DNA from: Escherichia coli O127:H6 str. E2348/69 | GTDB lineage: Bacteria; Pseudomonadota; Gammaproteobacteria; Enterobacterales; Enterobacteriaceae | Length of the DNA: 64,000 nt | NCBI RefSeq assembly: GCF_000026545.1 | Contig: NC_011601.1 | Direction: 5' to 3' (one strand) | In this document: piece after piece, positions 1-17,429 of the stretch | Layout: every line of letters starts with the position of its first letter | How positions within the stretch are numbered: the stretch's first letter is position 1 | The notes under the pieces: model-generated | The model's input: only the letters and a program-made list of their open reading frames with translations | What the model was told of the DNA's origin: nothing | The model's database searches: none | Translations under genes and position numbers: made by a program

Positions 1-13
1 ACACTTTCAGCAA

Positions 14-1227
14 CTAGCTGTAATTGAGCGCCGCGCTCAAATCTTCCGCCAGTCGCGGTGCCATCGACGACAAACGGTTATGCAGCTGAGTAATATCGTC
101 ATAGTTAAACAAATCAGGAATATAGCTGCGCACAATCTTATTCACATGGGTGGCAATTACGCTGGCGCTGTCGATCACCTGATACCCCATATTCAGCGCC
201 TTCGCTTTCTGCGCGGGCTGAATCCAGGTGACCGGCATCCCGTACGCCGGGTCGTTCCCCAGCACGCCGTCTATCTCGCCGTAGGTTTCGCTGGAGGGCA
301 GGGCCATCAGTTTATCTGCCGGAATATCCGCTTCATCAGCCTTAATGCCGTTGATGAAAATGGCGTACTGGCTGGGCTTGAGGCGGAAGTTTTCCCGAAT
401 GCGGATCTCCGGCAGCAGCACGCCGTTGCCGTCAGAAATCACCTGCCGCACGCCGCGAATCCGCTGGGTGAGCGGGTTACCCTGTGCTTTGTCCACCAGC
501 GCCACCAGCTTGTAGCCGAGGCTTAAACTGATGGGCTCGATCAGCGGAATGGTTTCCCAACTGACCTGTTGCTCGCTGGTTTCGGTGATGGTTCGGGTCA
601 GCGTTTCGAGGCTTTTCTCCTCCGCCTCCGCCGCCTGCGGCTGTTTGCTCATCCGCCAGCCGGTAAAGCCAAGCAGGGCGCTGAACAGCAAAAACGGCAG
701 GTGCGGCATCCCCGGCACCACCGCCAGCACAAACATAATTCCGGTAGCGGTGTAGAGCACCGACGGGCTTGCCAGCAACTGGTGGCGCACGTCATGGGCA
801 ATATCGCCATTATCGCTGACGCGGGTGACGATAATCGCCGCTGCGGTGGAGAGCAGCAGGGAAGGGATCTGTGCCACCAGTCCGTCGCCGATGGTCATCA
901 ACACATATTGCTGGAAGGCGGCGTCGGCGCTCAGGTTGTATTTGAAGATCCCGATACAGACGCCGCCGATCAGGTTGATCGCCAGAATCATCATCCCGGC
1001 GATGGCGTCTCCGCGCACAAACTTCGATGCCCCGTCCATCGCACCGTAGAAATCGGCCTCGCTGGCAACATCTTTACGCCGGGTTTGCGCCTGCGCCTGG
1101 TTGATCAATCCGGCGTTAAGATCGGCGTCAATCGCCATCTGTTTGCCGGGCATCGCGTCCAGGGTAAAGCGGGCAGAAACCTCGGAAATACGCTCGGCCC
1201 CTTTGGTGACGACAATAAAGTTGATAG
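14..1227 (-). pseudogene. lfhA: 3' remnant of Flag-2 flagellar export gene (FlhA homolog); N-terminal ~140 codons missing
   Basis: ORF 14..1651(-) matches FlhA from the segment 'IVVTKGAERISEVSARF...GKQMAIDADLNAG...FVRGDAIAG' onward; its first ~142 residues are low-complexity and have no FlhA similarity, so homology starts near nt 1227. Confidence 0.7.
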
Positions 1228-1249
1228 TGAACAGCGTCAGTAAATCCGA

Positions 1250-1991
1250 GCGTGAAAGCATTATCGCCGCGCTGCACGGGCAGTCGATTTTCAATGGCGG
1301 CGGGCTGTCGCCGTTAAATAAAATCAGCCCGACGCATCCGCCGAAACCTGCCACCGTGGCGGTGCCGGAAGAGACGGAGAAAAAAGCGCGCGACGTCAAC
1401 GAGAAAACGGCGCTACTGAAGAAGAAGTCCGCCACTGAGCTTGGCGAGCTGGCGACCAGTATCAACACCATCGTCCGCGATGCGCATATGGAAGCCAATC
1501 TGGAGATGGAGATTGTTCCGCAGGGATTACGCGTGCTGATTAAAGATGACCAGAACCGCAATATGTTTGAACGCGGCAGCGCGAAGATTATGCCGTTCTT
1601 TAAAACGCTGCTGGTGGAACTCGCGCCGGTATTCGACTCGCTCGACAACAAAATTATTATTACCGGGCATACCGATGCGATGGCCTATAAAAGCAATATC
1701 TACAACAACTGGAACCTTTCGGGTGACCGCGCGCTTTCGGCTCGTCGGGTACTGGAAGAGGCCGGGATGCCGGAAGATAAAGTGATGCAGGTGAGCGCAA
1801 TGGCGGACCAGATGCTGCTGGACGCGAAAAATCCGCAAAGTGCGGGTAACCGGCGCATTGAGATTATGGTGCTCACCAAAAGCGCGTCCGATACGTTGTA
1901 TCAATATTTTGGTCAGCATGGGGATAAGGTGGTGCAGCCGCTGGTGAAAAAGCTGGATAAGCAGCAGGTGCTTTCGCACCGAACGCGTTAA
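1250..1991 (+). pseudogene. lafU: MotB/OmpA-like Flag-2 motor protein remnant (LafU/MbhA-like); N-terminal TM region absent
   Basis: ORF 1101..1991(+): the C-terminal part carries a MotB/OmpA-like peptidoglycan-binding region ('IIITGHTD...NWNLSGDRALSARRVL...NRRIEIMV'); the first ~50 residues are the antisense shadow of lfhA. Confidence 0.6.
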
Positions 1992-2061
1992 ATGCTGAAT
2001 CTTTACGCATTTCTCAAACTCTGAAATCACTGTATACTTTACCAGTGTTGAGAGGTGAGCA

Positions 2062-3117
2062 ATGCGTAAAATCATTCATGTGGATATGGACTGCTTTTTC
2101 GCCGCGGTGGAGATGCGCGACAATCCCGCCCTGCGCGATATCCCTATTGCTATTGGCGGCAGCCGCGAACGCCGGGGGGTGATCAGCACCGCCAATTATC
2201 CCGCGCGTAAATTTGGCGTGCGTAGCGCAATGCCAACCGGCATGGCGCTCAAACTGTGTCCGCATCTCACCTTGCTTCCAGGACGCTTTGACGCCTACAA
2301 AGAAGCGTCAAATCATATCCGCGAAATTTTCTCGCGCTATACCTCGCGCATTGAACCGTTATCACTGGATGAAGCCTATCTCGAGGTCACCGATAGTGTG
2401 CATTGCCACGGCTCCGCGACCCTCATCGCCCAGGAAATCCGCCAGACGATTTTCAACGAGCTGCAATTGACGGCATCTGCGGGCGTTGCGCCGGTAAAGT
2501 TTCTCGCCAAAATTGCTTCCGACATGAATAAACCCAACGGTCAGTTTGTGATTACTCCGGCTGAGGTTCCGGCATTTCTGCAAACCTTACCGCTGGCAAA
2601 AATTCCCGGCGTCGGCAAAGTCTCAGCGGCTAAACTGGAAGCTATGGGGCTACGAACCTGCGGTGATGTGCAAAAGTGTGATCTGGTGACTCTGCTCAAA
2701 CGTTTTGGCAAATTTGGCCGCATTTTGTGGGAGCGTAGTCAGGGCATTGACGAGCGCGATGTTAACAGCGAAAGGTTGCGAAAATCCGTCGGTGTAGAAC
2801 GTACGATGGCGGAAGATATTCATCACTGGTCTGAATGTGAAGCGATCATCGAGCGGCTTTACCCTGAACTGGAGCGTCGTTTGGCAAAGGTAAAACCTGA
2901 TTTGCTGATTGCCCGCCAGGGGGTGAAATTAAAGTTCGACGATTTTCAGCAAACTACTCAGGAGCACGTCTGGCCGCGGCTGAATAAATCTGCTCTAATC
3001 GCCACCGCGCGTAAAACCTGGGATGAACGCCGCGGCGGGCGCGGTGTGCGGCTGGTGGGGCTGCATGTGACGTTGCTTGACCCGCAAATGGAAAGACAAC
3101 TGGTGCTGGGATTATGA
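2062..3117 (+). CDS. dinB: DNA polymerase IV (Y-family translesion polymerase)
   Basis: 351 aa, N-terminus 'MRKIIHVDMDCFFAAVEMRDNPALRDIPIAIGG', typical DinB/UmuC family. Confidence 0.95.
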   Translation: MRKIIHVDMDCFFAAVEMRDNPALRDIPIAIGGSRERRGVISTANYPARKFGVRSAMPTGMALKLCPHLTLLPGRFDAYKEASNHIREIFSRYTSRIEPLSLDEAYLEVTDSVHCHGSATLIAQEIRQTIFNELQLTASAGVAPVKFLAKIASDMNKPNGQFVITPAEVPAFLQTLPLAKIPGVGKVSAAKLEAMGLRTCGDVQKCDLVTLLKRFGKFGRILWERSQGIDERDVNSERLRKSVGVERTMAEDIHHWSECEAIIERLYPELERRLAKVKPDLLIARQGVKLKFDDFQQTTQEHVWPRLNKSALIATARKTWDERRGGRGVRLVGLHVTLLDPQMERQLVLGL

Positions 3118-3566
3118 ATAACATACAAATAAGAAACTATCAGCCTGGCGATTTTCAGCAACTATGCGCTATTTTCATTAGAGCGGTTACGATGACCGCC
3201 AGTCAGCATTATTCACCACAACAAATTGCCGCCTGGGCGCAGATTGACGAATCTCGCTGGAAGGAGAAACTCGCGAAATCACAAGTGCGGGTTGCAGTTA
3301 TTAATGCACAACCGGTTGGTTTTATCTCCCGCATTGAACATTATATCGATATGTTATTTGTTGACCCTGAATACACCCTCCGTGGGGTTGCCAGCGCTTT
3401 GTTAAAACCTTTGATTAAGTCTGAATCCGAACTTACGGTGGACGCCAGCATAACCGCAAAACCCTTTTTTGAACGTTATGGTTTTCAGACAGTTAAGCAG
3501 CAGCGCGTTGAATGCCGGGGAGCGTGGTTTACTAATTTTTATATGCGATATAAACCGCAACATTAA
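3114..3566 (+). CDS. yafP: GNAT-family acetyltransferase YafP
   Basis: 150 aa ORF; its ATG overlaps the dinB stop (ATGA at 3114-3117); GNAT-like sequence. Confidence 0.8.
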   Translation: MNNIQIRNYQPGDFQQLCAIFIRAVTMTASQHYSPQQIAAWAQIDESRWKEKLAKSQVRVAVINAQPVGFISRIEHYIDMLFVDPEYTLRGVASALLKPLIKSESELTVDASITAKPFFERYGFQTVKQQRVECRGAWFTNFYMRYKPQH

Positions 3567-3744: not shown

Positions 3745-4896
3745 ATGGAATGGTACATGGGCAAATATATTCGTCCCTTATCTGATGCGGTACTTACCAT
3801 CGCATCTGATGACCTGTGGATCGAGAGTTCAGCGATCCAACAATTACACACCACGGCAAATTTACCCGACATGCAACGCGTAGTAGGGATGCCAGATTTA
3901 CACCCCGGACGCGGCTATCCGATTGGCGCAGCGTTCTTCTCCGTAGGCCGTTTTTACCCGGCACTGGTCGGCAATGATATCGGCTGCGGTATGGCGCTAT
4001 GGCAAACAGATATTTTCGCGCGCAAATACAACGCCGATAAGTTTGAAAAGCGATTATCAGATCTGGATGACGTTGCTGAAGAAAGCTGGCTGGAGGAAAA
4101 CCTGCCGTCAGCATTTGCACAGCATCCGTGGCGCAGCTCGCTTGGCTCCATCGGTGGCGGTAACCACTTCGCAGAACTGCAACAGATTGATCAAATTATC
4201 GACGCGGAACTGTTTGCACTGGCTGGTCTGGATGCGCAGCATCTGCAACTGCTGGTTCATAGCGGCTCGAGGGGGTTGGGGCAGTCTATTTTACAGCGGC
4301 ATATTGCCTCGTTTTCGCATCATGGTTTGCCGGAAGGCAGTGACGACGCGCTAAGTTATATTGCGGAACATGATGATGCGCTGGCGTTTGCGCGTATTAA
4401 TCGCCAGCTGATCGCTTTGCGCATAATGCAACAAGTTAAGGCCAACGGAAATTCGGTTCTGGATGTGGCGCATAACTTTGTTAGCGCATGTCGAATCGGC
4501 GATCAACAGGGCTGGTTACACCGTAAAGGGGCTACGCCGGATGACAACGGTCTGGTGATTATTCCCGGTTCACGCGGTGATTACTCCTGGCTGGTTAAGC
4601 CTGTTGCGAACGAAAAAACGCTCCACTCGCTGGCGCATGGGGCAGGGCGTAAATGGGGGCGCACCGAGTGTAAAGGGCGTCTGGCAGCGAAATACACGGC
4701 GACGCAACTCTCACGTACTGAACTTGGCAGTCGGGTAATTTGTCGCGATAAACAACTCATCTTTGAAGAAGCGCCACAAGCCTATAAATCGGCTGAAAGT
4801 GTGGTGCAATGTCTGGTGCTGGCTGGGTTAATTATTCCTGTCGCGCGACTGCGTCCGGTGCTGACGCTCAAAAACAGTGGAGGGAAAAAAGGATGA
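3745..4896 (+). CDS. rtcB2: RtcB-family RNA ligase paralog (RtcB2/YkfJ); start may be the Met at 3757
   Basis: 383 aa ORF with an RtcB-like '[10 protein letters not shown]' motif; stop overlaps the prfH start (ATGA at 4893-4896). Confidence 0.8.
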
Positions 4897-5474
4897 TCTT
4901 GCTACAACTCTCCTCAGCTCAGGGGCCGGAAGAATGTTGTCTCGCAGTGAAAAAGGCACTGGACAGGCTGATTAAAGAAGCTGCCCGACAAGACGTCGCG
5001 GTAACGGTGCTGGAAACAGAAACGGGTCGCTACTCTGACACACTACGTTCGGCGCTGGTTTCACTTGATGGCGACAACGCATGGGCTCTAAGCGAAAGCT
5101 GGTGCGGCACTATTCAGTGGATTTGTCCGAGTCCGTATCGGCCTCATCATGGGCGCAAAAACTGGTTTCTGGGCATTGGGCGTTTTACCGCTGATGAGCA
5201 GGAACAATCGGATGCAATCCGTTATGAGACGCTGCGTTCGTCGGGGCCGGGCGGTCAACATGTCAATAAAACCGACTCGGCGGTACGCGCCACGCATCTG
5301 GCATCCGGTATTAGCGTGAAGGTTCAGTCAGAGCGCAGTCAGCATGCTAACAAACGGCTGGCGCGATTACTGATTGCCTGGAAGCTGGAACAACAGCAAC
5401 AGGAAAATAGCGCGGCGCTGAAATCGCAGCGGCGAATGTTCCATCACCAGATTGAACGTGGCAACCCGCGATGA
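4893..5474 (+). CDS. prfH: Peptide chain release factor homolog PrfH (GGQ domain, no codon-recognition domain)
   Basis: Start taken at '[15 protein letters not shown]' inside ORF 4809..5474; contains '[17 protein letters not shown]' (GGQ catalytic motif of class I release factors). Confidence 0.85.
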
Positions 5475-5519: not shown

Positions 5520-5551
5520 CTGCCGGAAGGCGATTAAACGCCATCCGGCAG
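5520..5551. terminator. Stem-loop between convergent prfH and pepD (likely bidirectional terminator)
   Basis: Inverted repeat CTGCCGGAAGGCG / CGCCATCCGGCAG (13 bp arms, 1 mismatch) with a 6-nt loop, located between two convergent stop codons. Confidence 0.5.
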
Positions 5552-5563
5552 CAAATCAAATAA

Positions 5564-7021
5564 TTACTTCGCCGGAATTTCTTTCAGCAGTTCAGTCAGA
5601 AGCGTCCAGTAATGACCAACGCTTTCGATATGAACTTGCTCATCCGGGGAGTGTGGACCGGTGATGGTTGGCCCGATAGACACCATGTCCATTTCCGGAT
5701 ACGGTTTTTTGAACAGACCACATTCGAGGCCCGCGTGGATAATCTGGATGTTCGGCGTTTTGTTGAACAGACGCTGATAGGTTTCACGTACCAGATGCAT
5801 TACCGGAGAGTTAGCGTCCGGCTGCCAGCCAGGATATGCGCCTTTTGCTTCTGTTTTCGCACCTGCCAGTTTACCCAGTGAATCCAGCATGCTCACTACG
5901 TAGTCTTTACCGCTGTCGATCAGAGAACGGATCAGGCAGTGAATTTCTACGTTATTGTCGGTCATGGTCACCACACCGACGTTCAGGGAGGTTTCGACCA
6001 CACCTTTTGCCACGTCGGAGTTGCGGATCACACCGTTCGGGGTGGCGTTCAGCAGACGAATAAAGGTATCGCGAGATGTCGCCGTTAATGCAGCTTTGTC
6101 GTTCGCTACGGAGTCCAGCAGCAATGCCAGATTCTTCTCTTTTTCTGCCAGTTCGTTTTTCAGGATCTCCTGATAGGTATCCACCAGAGATTTCAGGGCG
6201 TCGACTTTATCAGCTGCGACAGCAATGGTCGCAAAGGCTTCACGCGGGATGGCGTTACGCAGTGTGCCGCCGTTGAAATCAATAAGACGCAGGTCCAGTT
6301 CTTCTGCATGACCCGCCAGGAAGCGCACCAACAGTTTGTTGGCATTACCCAGGCCAACGTGGATTTCACCGCCGGAGTGACCGCCTTTCAGACCTTTTAA
6401 GGTTAACTTGAAGGTTTCAAAACCAGCTGGAACCGCTTCACGATCTAAATGCAGGTTGGAGGTGAAGTCGATACCTCCCGCACAACCCATGTAGATTTCA
6501 CCTTCTTCTTCGGAGTCGGTGTTAATCAGAATATCAGCCTGCAACCAGTTGCTCTGTAAGCCAAAAGCACCGTCCATACCGGCTTCTTCGGTCATGGTCA
6601 GCAGCACTTCCAGCGGGCCGTGAACCACGTTTTCGTCAGCCAGAACCGCCAGTGCAGAGGCCATACCAATGCCGTTATCCGCACCCAGCGTGGTGCCGCG
6701 TGCTTTAACCCATTCGCCATCAATATAAGGCTGGATAGGATCTTTGGTGAAGTCATGCACGGTGTCGTTATTTTTTTGCGGCACCATATCGAGGTGGGCC
6801 TGCAAGACGACCGGTTTACGATTTTCCATACCTGCGGTAGCAGGTTTACGAATCAGGATATTACCTACCTGATCGCGTTCGACATGGAAACCTTTCTCTT
6901 TTGCCCAACCAACAATGTATTCAGCGAGTTGCTCTTCATGATAGGACGGGTGAGGAATAGAACAGATTTTGGCAAAAATATCCCACAGCGGCTGTGGAGA
7001 TAATTGAGACAGTTCAGACAC
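5564..7021 (-). CDS. pepD: Cytosol non-specific dipeptidase (aminoacyl-histidine dipeptidase)
   Basis: 485 aa, 'MSELSQLSPQPLWDIFAKICSIPHPSYHEE', M20-family peptidase. Confidence 0.95.
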   Translation of the reverse strand: MSELSQLSPQPLWDIFAKICSIPHPSYHEEQLAEYIVGWAKEKGFHVERDQVGNILIRKPATAGMENRKPVVLQAHLDMVPQKNNDTVHDFTKDPIQPYIDGEWVKARGTTLGADNGIGMASALAVLADENVVHGPLEVLLTMTEEAGMDGAFGLQSNWLQADILINTDSEEEGEIYMGCAGGIDFTSNLHLDREAVPAGFETFKLTLKGLKGGHSGGEIHVGLGNANKLLVRFLAGHAEELDLRLIDFNGGTLRNAIPREAFATIAVAADKVDALKSLVDTYQEILKNELAEKEKNLALLLDSVANDKAALTATSRDTFIRLLNATPNGVIRNSDVAKGVVETSLNVGVVTMTDNNVEIHCLIRSLIDSGKDYVVSMLDSLGKLAGAKTEAKGAYPGWQPDANSPVMHLVRETYQRLFNKTPNIQIIHAGLECGLFKKPYPEMDMVSIGPTITGPHSPDEQVHIESVGHYWTLLTELLKEIPAK

Positions 7022-7281
7022 GTTAAGTCTCCTTGTCGATCACCCGCAAAACAGTATTGCAGGTCACAGGGTTAGCAGAAAATGTTGTCAACACAAGACA
7101 GGCTTGCGAGATATGTTTGAGAATACCACTTTATCCCGCGTCAGGGAGAGGCAGTGCGTAAAAAGACGCGGACTCATGTGAAATACTGGTTTTTAGTGCG
7201 CCAGATCTCTATAATCTCGCGCAACCTATTTTCCCCTCGAACACTTTTTAAGCCGTAGATAAACAGGCTGGGACACTTCAC

Positions 7282-13400: not shown

Positions 13401-13476
13401 GCCGATATAGCTCAGTTGGTAGAGCAGCGCATTCGTAATGCGAAGGTCGTAGGTTCGACTCCTATTATCGGCACCA
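13401..13476 (+). tRNA. thrW: tRNA-Thr (anticodon CGU)
   Basis: 76-nt cloverleaf GCCGATATAGCTCAGTTGGTAGAGCAGCGCATTCGTAATGCGAAGGTCGTAGGTTCGACTCCTATTATCGGCACCA; anticodon loop TTCGTAA; T-arm GGTTCGA. Confidence 0.95.
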
Positions 13477-13490
13477 TTTAAATCAATAAA

Positions 13491-13958
13491 TTACCTCACA
13501 TTTAAGTAAACCACGTTCACCTCTTGTGCCGTATTTGTGCCATTGCGACTTATAATCGCATCGATTTTGCTCGCGTGCTCGGTGAGATGCCCGGCTGAAA
13601 GGTGGGCGTATCTTTGAACCATTTCGAGAGTTTCCCATCCTCCCATCTCTTTAAGTGCAAGAAGAGAGACACCGGACTGAACCAGCCAGCTTGCCCAGGT
13701 ATGCCTCAGGTCATGGAAGCGGAAGTTGCTAATGCCTGCCCGCTTTAACGCTCCCTTCCATGCCTTGTTGCTGTCGGTTCTCATCTTCCTTACCGCTGCT
13801 GTTTTTGTTCCGTCGCTTCGGTAGGCAGGTCTGGTGTGGACAAATACCCATCTCTTATGGAGCCCCTGCTGTTTTCTTAATATCTGGCATGCGGTTTCGT
13901 TAAGAGGAACTCCGATCGCATTGCCAGCTTTTGTTTCATCAGGGTGCATCCATGCCAT
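13491..13958 (-). pseudogene. Tyrosine recombinase (phage-type integrase) C-terminal fragment, truncated next to the IS3-family element
   Basis: 155 aa ORF carrying the integrase catalytic region ('[19 protein letters not shown]...[10 protein letters not shown]'); abuts thrW 3' end; no N-terminal ~250 aa. Confidence 0.8.
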
Positions 13959-14072
13959 TTTCTTATCCAGATCGACCTGTGACCACTCAAGGTCTGTAAC
14001 TGTAGTGGCACACTGAATTTGGCCACCTGAACAGAGGTGATATGCTCACCTCAGAACAACACAGGTGCTCCA

Positions 14073-16624
<2,552 letters not shown>

Positions 16625-16762
16625 TGTTTGAAGATTGTTGTGCCGTATTTGTGACATACACATGACAACATCATGCATCAACTTTCTGTTTGTGCCATCA
16701 ACTATAGCTTAGTGAATGCGGTTAATGCTTGCTAAAACAGATAGTTATGATTGGTGCTACAG

Positions 16763-16808
16763 ATTCGTAATGCGAAGGTCGGAGGTTCGACTCCTATTAT
16801 CGGCACCA
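16763..16808 (+). repeat. Partial direct copy of the thrW 3' half (attR-like island boundary, pseudo-tRNA)
   Basis: ATTCGTAATGCGAAGGTCGGAGGTTCGACTCCTATTATCGGCACCA matches thrW positions 13431-13476 with one mismatch, and is followed by a similar TTAAATCAATAA flank. Confidence 0.85.
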
Positions 16809-17429
16809 CTTAAATCAATAAGTTACACATCATTAATACCTTCCTTATTTTTTGATTGGGACAGATTTGGGACCGATGGGTTCAGGATCGAATCTATTTA
16901 CCGTGCGTGTTCGGTAAGGTGATTAGGTGCGAGGTGAGCATATCGACGAACCATTTCGAGAGTTTCCCATCCGCTCATTTTTAAGTGCAAGCAGGGAAAC
17001 ACCGGACTAAACCTATCAGCTGTTCGAAAATGGCAAGCGGATTAATATGCCATGGCGGCTTTGAGCCGCACGCATGGGGTGTGGCAAGCCTGATGGATGT
17101 TGCTGTGCTTGTGGTGGCGTGTTTGCTGGTCTGGTTGTTGGTTAATCGCGAAAATCATTATGCCTGAGGAATACCACAGGACGTTCAGGTTTTGCATAAA
17201 AAAGCCCACCATTAAGGTGGGCAAAAGGAATGATTTATATTCTCTGAGAGAGACATTACATTTCTCCTTGCCACTTCTAACATAAAAATATGGAGAAATA
17301 ATGGAGCTTATATTAATTGGCGATTAGGTAATCATGTGGTTATACAAAACAATACAGTTCTTTACATTTGCCTTGTTTTATGAATACTCCTAAAGAGGTG
17401 TATAACATAATGGTACAAGCAGGGTAGAT

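Follow-up and report, generated by a model that had tools for sequence, protein, structure and literature searches.

The lfhA'-lafU' scar of the Flag-2 locus in Escherichia coli E2348/69 and its junction in other E. coli and in Escherichia albertii

The DNA analyzed, 64,000 nucleotides from E. coli O127:H6 strain E2348/69 (hereafter the window), opens on two gene fragments that lie end to end. Window positions 1-2100 are 100% identical to the E2348/69 chromosome NZ_CP059840.2, on the reverse strand. The locus is in its expected site, flanked by the yafL side and dinB, and consists of a piece of lfhA, the Flag-2 FlhA homologue, followed by a piece of lafU, the Flag-2 MotB homologue (Table 1). 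Flag-2 is a second flagellar gene cluster of lateral type. Both matches are real and far above chance.

The left fragment belongs to Flag-2 lfhA and not to the primary flhA, on both nucleotide and amino-acid identity. Over window 1-1225 blastn gives 96.2% nucleotide identity to lfhA of the enteroaggregative E. coli strain 042 and 95.8% to that of SMS-3-5, and tblastn places residues 125-538 of the intact SMS-3-5 LfhA on window 1243-2 at 98% identity. The Pfam FHIPEP profile matches the minus-strand ORF 14..1651 (E=1e-151), with ORF residues 139-539 aligned to profile positions 99-497 of 657. The intact LfhA spans positions 1-656 of this profile, and positions 1-98 are gone from the remnant. 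As a RefSeq feature the remnant extends 478 bp to the left of the window start (positions 5522..7240 of locus record L001), in keeping with a preliminary description of this DNA, made from the sequence alone, in which the window begins inside the remnant. That description took the fragment for the distal ~400 codons of an FlhA homologue on the minus strand. Roughly 400 lfhA codons are indeed there, but they are codons 131-538 and form the middle of the gene, as the last 159 codons fall to the left of the window. With codons 1-130 gone and a stop at codon 534, lfhA' does not have a complete FHIPEP domain with its N-terminal membrane helices. It is a gene fragment and not, in the functional sense, a member of the FHIPEP (FlhA/InvA) type III export gate family.

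The right fragment is lafU, and it is followed directly by dinB at window 2062..3117. Residues 53-307 of the intact SMS-3-5 LafU align by tblastn to window 1224-1988 at 97% identity, and window 1220-2100 matches the lafU-dinB region of 042 and SMS-3-5 with 94.3% and 94.7% nucleotide identity, respectively. Pfam finds an OmpA-like domain in the plus-strand ORF 1101..1991 (E=5e-14). Intact LafU carries two domains, MotB_plug (residues 19-70) and OmpA (residues 166-259), and only the OmpA domain is found in ORF 1206-1991; the combination of MotB_plug and a C-terminal OmpA-like domain that marks a MotB-type stator protein is thus missing from lafU'. The fragment had been described as the C-terminal MotB-like part of lafU on the plus strand. 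It is real, but with 254 of the 307 codons it reaches beyond the OmpA-like domain.

Table 1. Features of the lfhA'-lafU' locus in window coordinates; negative positions lie to the left of the window start.
Feature	Position	Strand	Details
lfhA' remnant (Flag-2 FlhA homologue)	1..1225	-	codons 538 (window edge) back to 131 of 697
In-frame TAG, Q534* (CAG>TAG) in lfhA'	14..16	-	ORF list; PGAP 'internal stop'
Deletion junction	1223..1225		3-bp microhomology GAT common to the lfhA and lafU sides
lafU' remnant (Flag-2 MotB homologue)	1226..1991	+	last base of codon 53 through codon 307, plus TAA (1989-1991)
Partial 'flagellar biosynthesis protein FlhA' pseudogene	-478..1240	-	RefSeq/PGAP: 'internal stop; incomplete; missing N-terminus'
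'lafU' CDS, 786 bp	1206..1991	+	RefSeq/PGAP: WP_000207584.1, 261 aa, called intact
Chance upstream extension of the lfhA frame into antisense lafU	1226..1261	-	ATG at 1261-1259 yields MLSRSDLLTLFT ahead of I131

Both reading frames stay open across the junction by chance, without homology. The PGAP 'LafU' ORF starts at a GTG at 1206, and its first 7 codons are antisense lfhA, after which lafU codons 54-307 follow. The PGAP 'LafU' of scar strains is thus a chimeric ORF and should be treated as a pseudogene. On the minus strand the open frame continues to 1651 without homology, and the FHIPEP match starts only at ORF residue 139. The ATG at 1261-1259 is presumably the start of the old K-12 'fhiA' ORF.

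To locate the breakpoint, we used blastn together with three-way alignments that included the intact loci of SMS-3-5 and 042. Alignment with the 042 cluster was the check named in the preliminary description, and it mapped the breakpoint to the base. The two fragments, recognized there as a Flag-2 deletion scar, are joined by a clean deletion with its junction at 1225/1226, a few bases to the left of the interval 1227-1250 in which they had been thought to meet. Writing the breakpoint as a slash, the lfhA side reads GTTGAT/GATCATCAG and the lafU side GTGGAT/TGTCAACAG. In the longer three-way view, ...AAAGTTGAT/GATCATCAG on the lfhA side and ...GCTGTGGAT/TGTCAACAG on the lafU side give the common scar AAAGTTGAT/TGTCAACAG. 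The GAT at the junction sits inside an imperfect 15-bp direct repeat (11/15 positions matching), and the blastn segments of the two sides overlap at window 1220-1225. The base-level breakpoint and its 3-bp microhomology are now fixed: of the 697 lfhA codons those from 131 onward are kept, and of the 307 lafU codons those after 53, together with the final base of codon 53 itself. Relative to 042, 36,008 bp are missing (record positions 286386-322393, with breakpoint coordinates 286385/322394), and relative to SMS-3-5, 36,815 bp. Two classes of junction had appeared possible, as alignments ended at either 291 or 300 of the intact lfhA query. We rejected this, since the sequences themselves have one junction; the apparent difference arises because a chance 6/9 match in the extra 9 bases lets megablast extend.

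Lost in the deletion are lfhA codons 1-130, some 40 genes of Flag-2, and the first 53 codons of lafU with its transmembrane/plug segment. None of the genes that intact loci have between lfhA and lafU is present in the 64-kb window. When LfhA residues 1-130, LafU residues 1-53, and 11 other Flag-2 proteins were searched against the window by tblastn, none matched above chance (best E=0.02). An intact FlhA N-terminus, held in the preliminary description to be evidence against a deletion, is thus not found in the window. By comparison with MotB, the deleted LafU stretch AFADFTLAMMALFMTLWI corresponds to the one transmembrane helix that bears the proton-binding Asp, and the lost LafU segment carries the equivalent of MotB Asp32. 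The lost LfhA segment carries the first membrane helices. Missing its first 130 residues, lfhA' is therefore without its start codon and upstream signals, and the periplasmic domain of lafU' is without a membrane anchor or export signal. Given the loss of the LafU helix with its Asp and of the LfhA helices, start, and upstream signals, neither fragment can perform its flagellar function. A consensus scan for promoters ahead of either fragment returned only weak 9/12 sites, none convincing.

The K-12 scar, fhiA-mbhA (lfhA'-lafU'), was reportedly described by Ren and colleagues. It shares with E2348/69 the two fragments and their orientation, a location upstream of dinB, and the junction sequence AAAGTTGAT/TGTCAACAG as far as the breakpoint, and the PGAP CDS lengths are equal (1,719 bp for lfhA' and 786 bp for lafU'). 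The E2348/69 scar differs in being about 4.6% divergent and in carrying Q534* and two substitutions, 1226 T>A and 1229 C>G. Of nine alleles compared, only that of E2348/69 has Q534*, which is missing from 536, the MG1655 derivative, O157:H7, SMS-3-5, 042, E. albertii, and two further scar contigs. Because of this in-frame TAG the ORF list ends at 14, a coordinate that had been given as the left limit of the feature and is a nonsense codon, not the end of lfhA. Q534* is secondary decay of lfhA'. The two substitutions fall right after the junction, where E2348/69 has AGTGAAC and other scars and intact lafU have TGTCAAC. Both are at third codon positions in the lafU frame. An origin from a divergent intact lafU, implying an independent deletion, was considered for these changes and rejected, as RMDEC465 and R32_14_1F, whose intact alleles are the nearest, carry TGTC and 1229G is also present in another scar strain, SCPM-O-B-8794.

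The intact clusters of 042 and SMS-3-5 occupy the same chromosomal site, and over lfhA codons 131-697 and lafU codons 54-307 their nucleotide identity to the scar is 94-96%. Unlike E2348/69, they keep the 36.0-36.8 kb with lfhB, lfiR/Q/P/N/M, lafK, lfiE-J, the lfg genes, lafA-lafT, and cargo genes, and their LfhA and LafU are complete (FHIPEP 1-656; MotB_plug plus OmpA). The MG1655 derivative, 536, O157:H7, and the E. albertii type strain all have the E2348/69 junction sequence as far as the breakpoint (AAAGTTGAT). The three E. coli strains belong to phylogroups A, B2, and E, respectively. Three further contigs share the junction string, with one base different in one of them (L012).

To determine how common the scar is, we surveyed 5,426 complete E. 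coli genomes. The contiguous 2.1 kb is present in 4,071 of them (about 75% with the scar). Sequence spanning the lfhA breakpoint was found in 1,291 genomes and sequence spanning the lafU breakpoint in 1,323, so that about 24% are intact at both ends. STEC383 and TW10690 match the scar only partly (25% and 22% coverage), which indicates further deletions taking more of lfhA' and lafU'. These counts are in line with the truncated lfhA/lafU pair reported in 76 of 100 E. coli strains, with direct repeats at the deletion ends (PMC6993521), and with K-12 and B keeping only fhiA/mbhA of Flag-2 (PMC3032704). These published accounts, and the one junction in the MG1655 derivative, O157:H7, and 536, bear out the earlier view that this is the known Flag-2 deletion of many E. 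coli. In their passages on the locus both papers cite Ren et al. 2005 (J Bacteriol 187:1430) as the source for the scar.

When one genome per bacterial species was scanned with a degenerate junction pattern, four contigs matched, belonging to the E. albertii type strain, one E. coli, and two metagenome-assembled genomes (MAGs). The MAG contigs, SFGJ01000062.1 and JAIJJM010000815.1, are labelled Clostridiales and Collinsella and are 95.1% and 99.9% identical, respectively, to the scar of the MG1655 derivative (K-12). Both are almost certainly mis-binned E. coli DNA.

Flag-2-negative E. albertii have been reported to carry a truncated locus of roughly 2.5 kb (PMC11420993). The type strain NBRC 107761 has the identical lfhA-lafU junction in a locus of about 2.5 kb, but its scar is about 90% identical to that of E2348/69 and has lesions of its own. 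These are a 22-bp frameshifting deletion in lfhA' (equivalent to window 270-291) and a stop at lafU codon 302, and they are independent signs of decay. The species-private sites that flank the E. albertii junction are all at third positions, the nearest lying 22 bp to the right and 83 bp to the left. When a tract of recent transfer between E. albertii and E. coli was sought, the core without species-private sites came to only about 100 bp (1143-1246).

We also examined how the scar alleles differ from one another. Between them, dS is 0.14-0.23 with a dN/dS of 0.01-0.05 for lfhA', and 0.09-0.31 with a dN/dS of 0.03-0.07 for lafU'. These dN/dS values are indistinguishable from those of intact-intact pairs and of functional dinB (0.01-0.07). 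Private changes are mainly synonymous, with 69 synonymous versus 14 non-synonymous in the E. coli scar alleles and 35 versus 3 in the intact alleles. The frames are open over 567 (lfhA') and 254 (lafU') codons in 536, the MG1655 derivative, and O157, and are also open in further contigs. Variable sites are three-periodic, and many are common to scar and intact alleles. The lafU' of E2348/69 agrees at 747 of 766 positions with lafU of RMDEC465, an intact allele, and at 715-721 of 766 with other scars. At their closest, polymorphisms come within 11-23 bp of the junction. An old deletion decaying neutrally should leave scar alleles that differ at all codon positions, which is not what was observed, and with polymorphisms so close to the junction a single deletion followed by clonal neutral decay does not fit without frequent recombination. 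The synonymous-biased divergence of the scar alleles most likely reflects exchange of their flanks with intact alleles by recombination.

Taken together, it is very probable that E2348/69 carries an inherited lfhA'-lafU' Flag-2 scar that goes back to one deletion, has persisted and spread with its flanks exchanged, consists of fragments dead for flagellar function, and has decayed further in this strain. Illegitimate recombination at the 3-bp GAT joined lfhA codon 131 to lafU codon 53/54, removing about 36 kb. This deletion presumably happened once, and the scar allele would since have been maintained and become widespread in both E. coli and E. albertii. Homologous recombination may have kept swapping the scar flanks with intact alleles, which would be under selection in Flag-2-positive strains. 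Under such exchange, the deep divergence would resemble that of functional genes and the recent lesions would resemble decay. All scars examined share one junction, and the other deletions seen at the locus differ in extent, which argues against the same deletion arising repeatedly at a deletion hotspot, including in the lineages of E2348/69 and E. albertii. Recurrence could account for scar flanks as divergent as intact alleles, for the closeness of the E2348/69 lafU' to that of intact RMDEC465, and for synonymous differences that reach within 1-22 bp of the junction. With only 3 bp of homology, however, recurrent deletion at the same site is unlikely, as a GAT in an 11/15 repeat is far too little to direct base-identical 36-kb deletions. 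We give this explanation very little weight. That the juxtaposition is an artefact of assembly or annotation is scarcely conceivable, as the same contiguous 2.1 kb is found in 4,071 independently assembled complete genomes and in another species; we found no support for it, and the sole fault in the annotation is the listing of the chimeric lafU' as an intact gene by PGAP.

It is also possible that the truncated fhiA-type (ATG 1261) and mbhA/lafU-type (GTG 1206) ORFs are functional and selected, having been co-opted for a non-flagellar role. Scar-allele dN/dS no higher than that of intact alleles or dinB, the long open frames, and third-position differences beside a junction identical in both species would all be expected of such genes. 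With a dN/dS of 0.01-0.1 in both fragments, as low as in dinB, truncated LfhA and/or LafU products could have been under selection ever since an old deletion. Our literature search on fhiA and mbhA turned up no study of selection on the fragments. Against a retained role, lfhA' is cut at codon 534 in E2348/69, E. albertii has both its 22-bp frameshift and its lafU' stop, and some E. coli (STEC383 and TW10690) have lost more of the scar. These lineage-specific disruptions make selection on the fragments themselves unlikely. LafU' moreover has neither a membrane anchor nor an export signal, the promoter scan gave no good candidate, and the polymorphisms common to intact alleles make recombination a sufficient explanation. 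We therefore regard co-option as improbable, if somewhat less so than repeated deletion. The scar is more likely a long-lived polymorphism of both species, with flanks kept clean by recombination with functional alleles.

The scar itself is already known: it has long been described and carries a RefSeq annotation, and by it the window can be recognized as ordinary chromosomal backbone of the EPEC strain E2348/69. What is added here is the exact breakpoint, which part of lfhA lies in the window and what coordinate 14 is, a junction identical at base level in E. albertii, and flanks that evolve like coding sequence. As its flanks evolve like functional genes, the scar is a useful natural marker for how a deletion allele spreads or persists by recombination in E. 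coli and E. albertii.

Several neighbouring features were observed in E2348/69. A hicA/hicB toxin-antitoxin pair lies between yafL and the lfhA remnant (L001 4790-5417), where SMS-3-5 and 042 have the REP-associated transposase rayT. On the other side of the scar, the yafN-yafO toxin-antitoxin pair, which separates dinB from yafP in SMS-3-5, in 042, and presumably in K-12, is absent from E2348/69. Here the stop of dinB (2062-3117) overlaps the start of yafP (3114-3566) at window 3111-3117 (TTATGAATAAC). In SMS-3-5 the extra segment of ~754 bp between dinB and yafP has the 7-bp direct repeat ATTATGA at its two ends, and E2348/69 has a single copy. At this site E2348/69 either has lost the segment by a clean deletion or represents the empty target of an inserted module. 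Downstream of yafP, window 3745-5474 carries a gene for an RtcB-family RNA ligase and prfH (release factor H), both annotated intact; we take this pair to be disrupted in K-12. Further along, a tRNA-Thr gene (13401-13476) lies beside proA and is followed by broken integrase, IS3, and ISEc21 transposase genes (~13491-16979), a cluster that resembles the degraded remains of an element integrated at a tRNA site.
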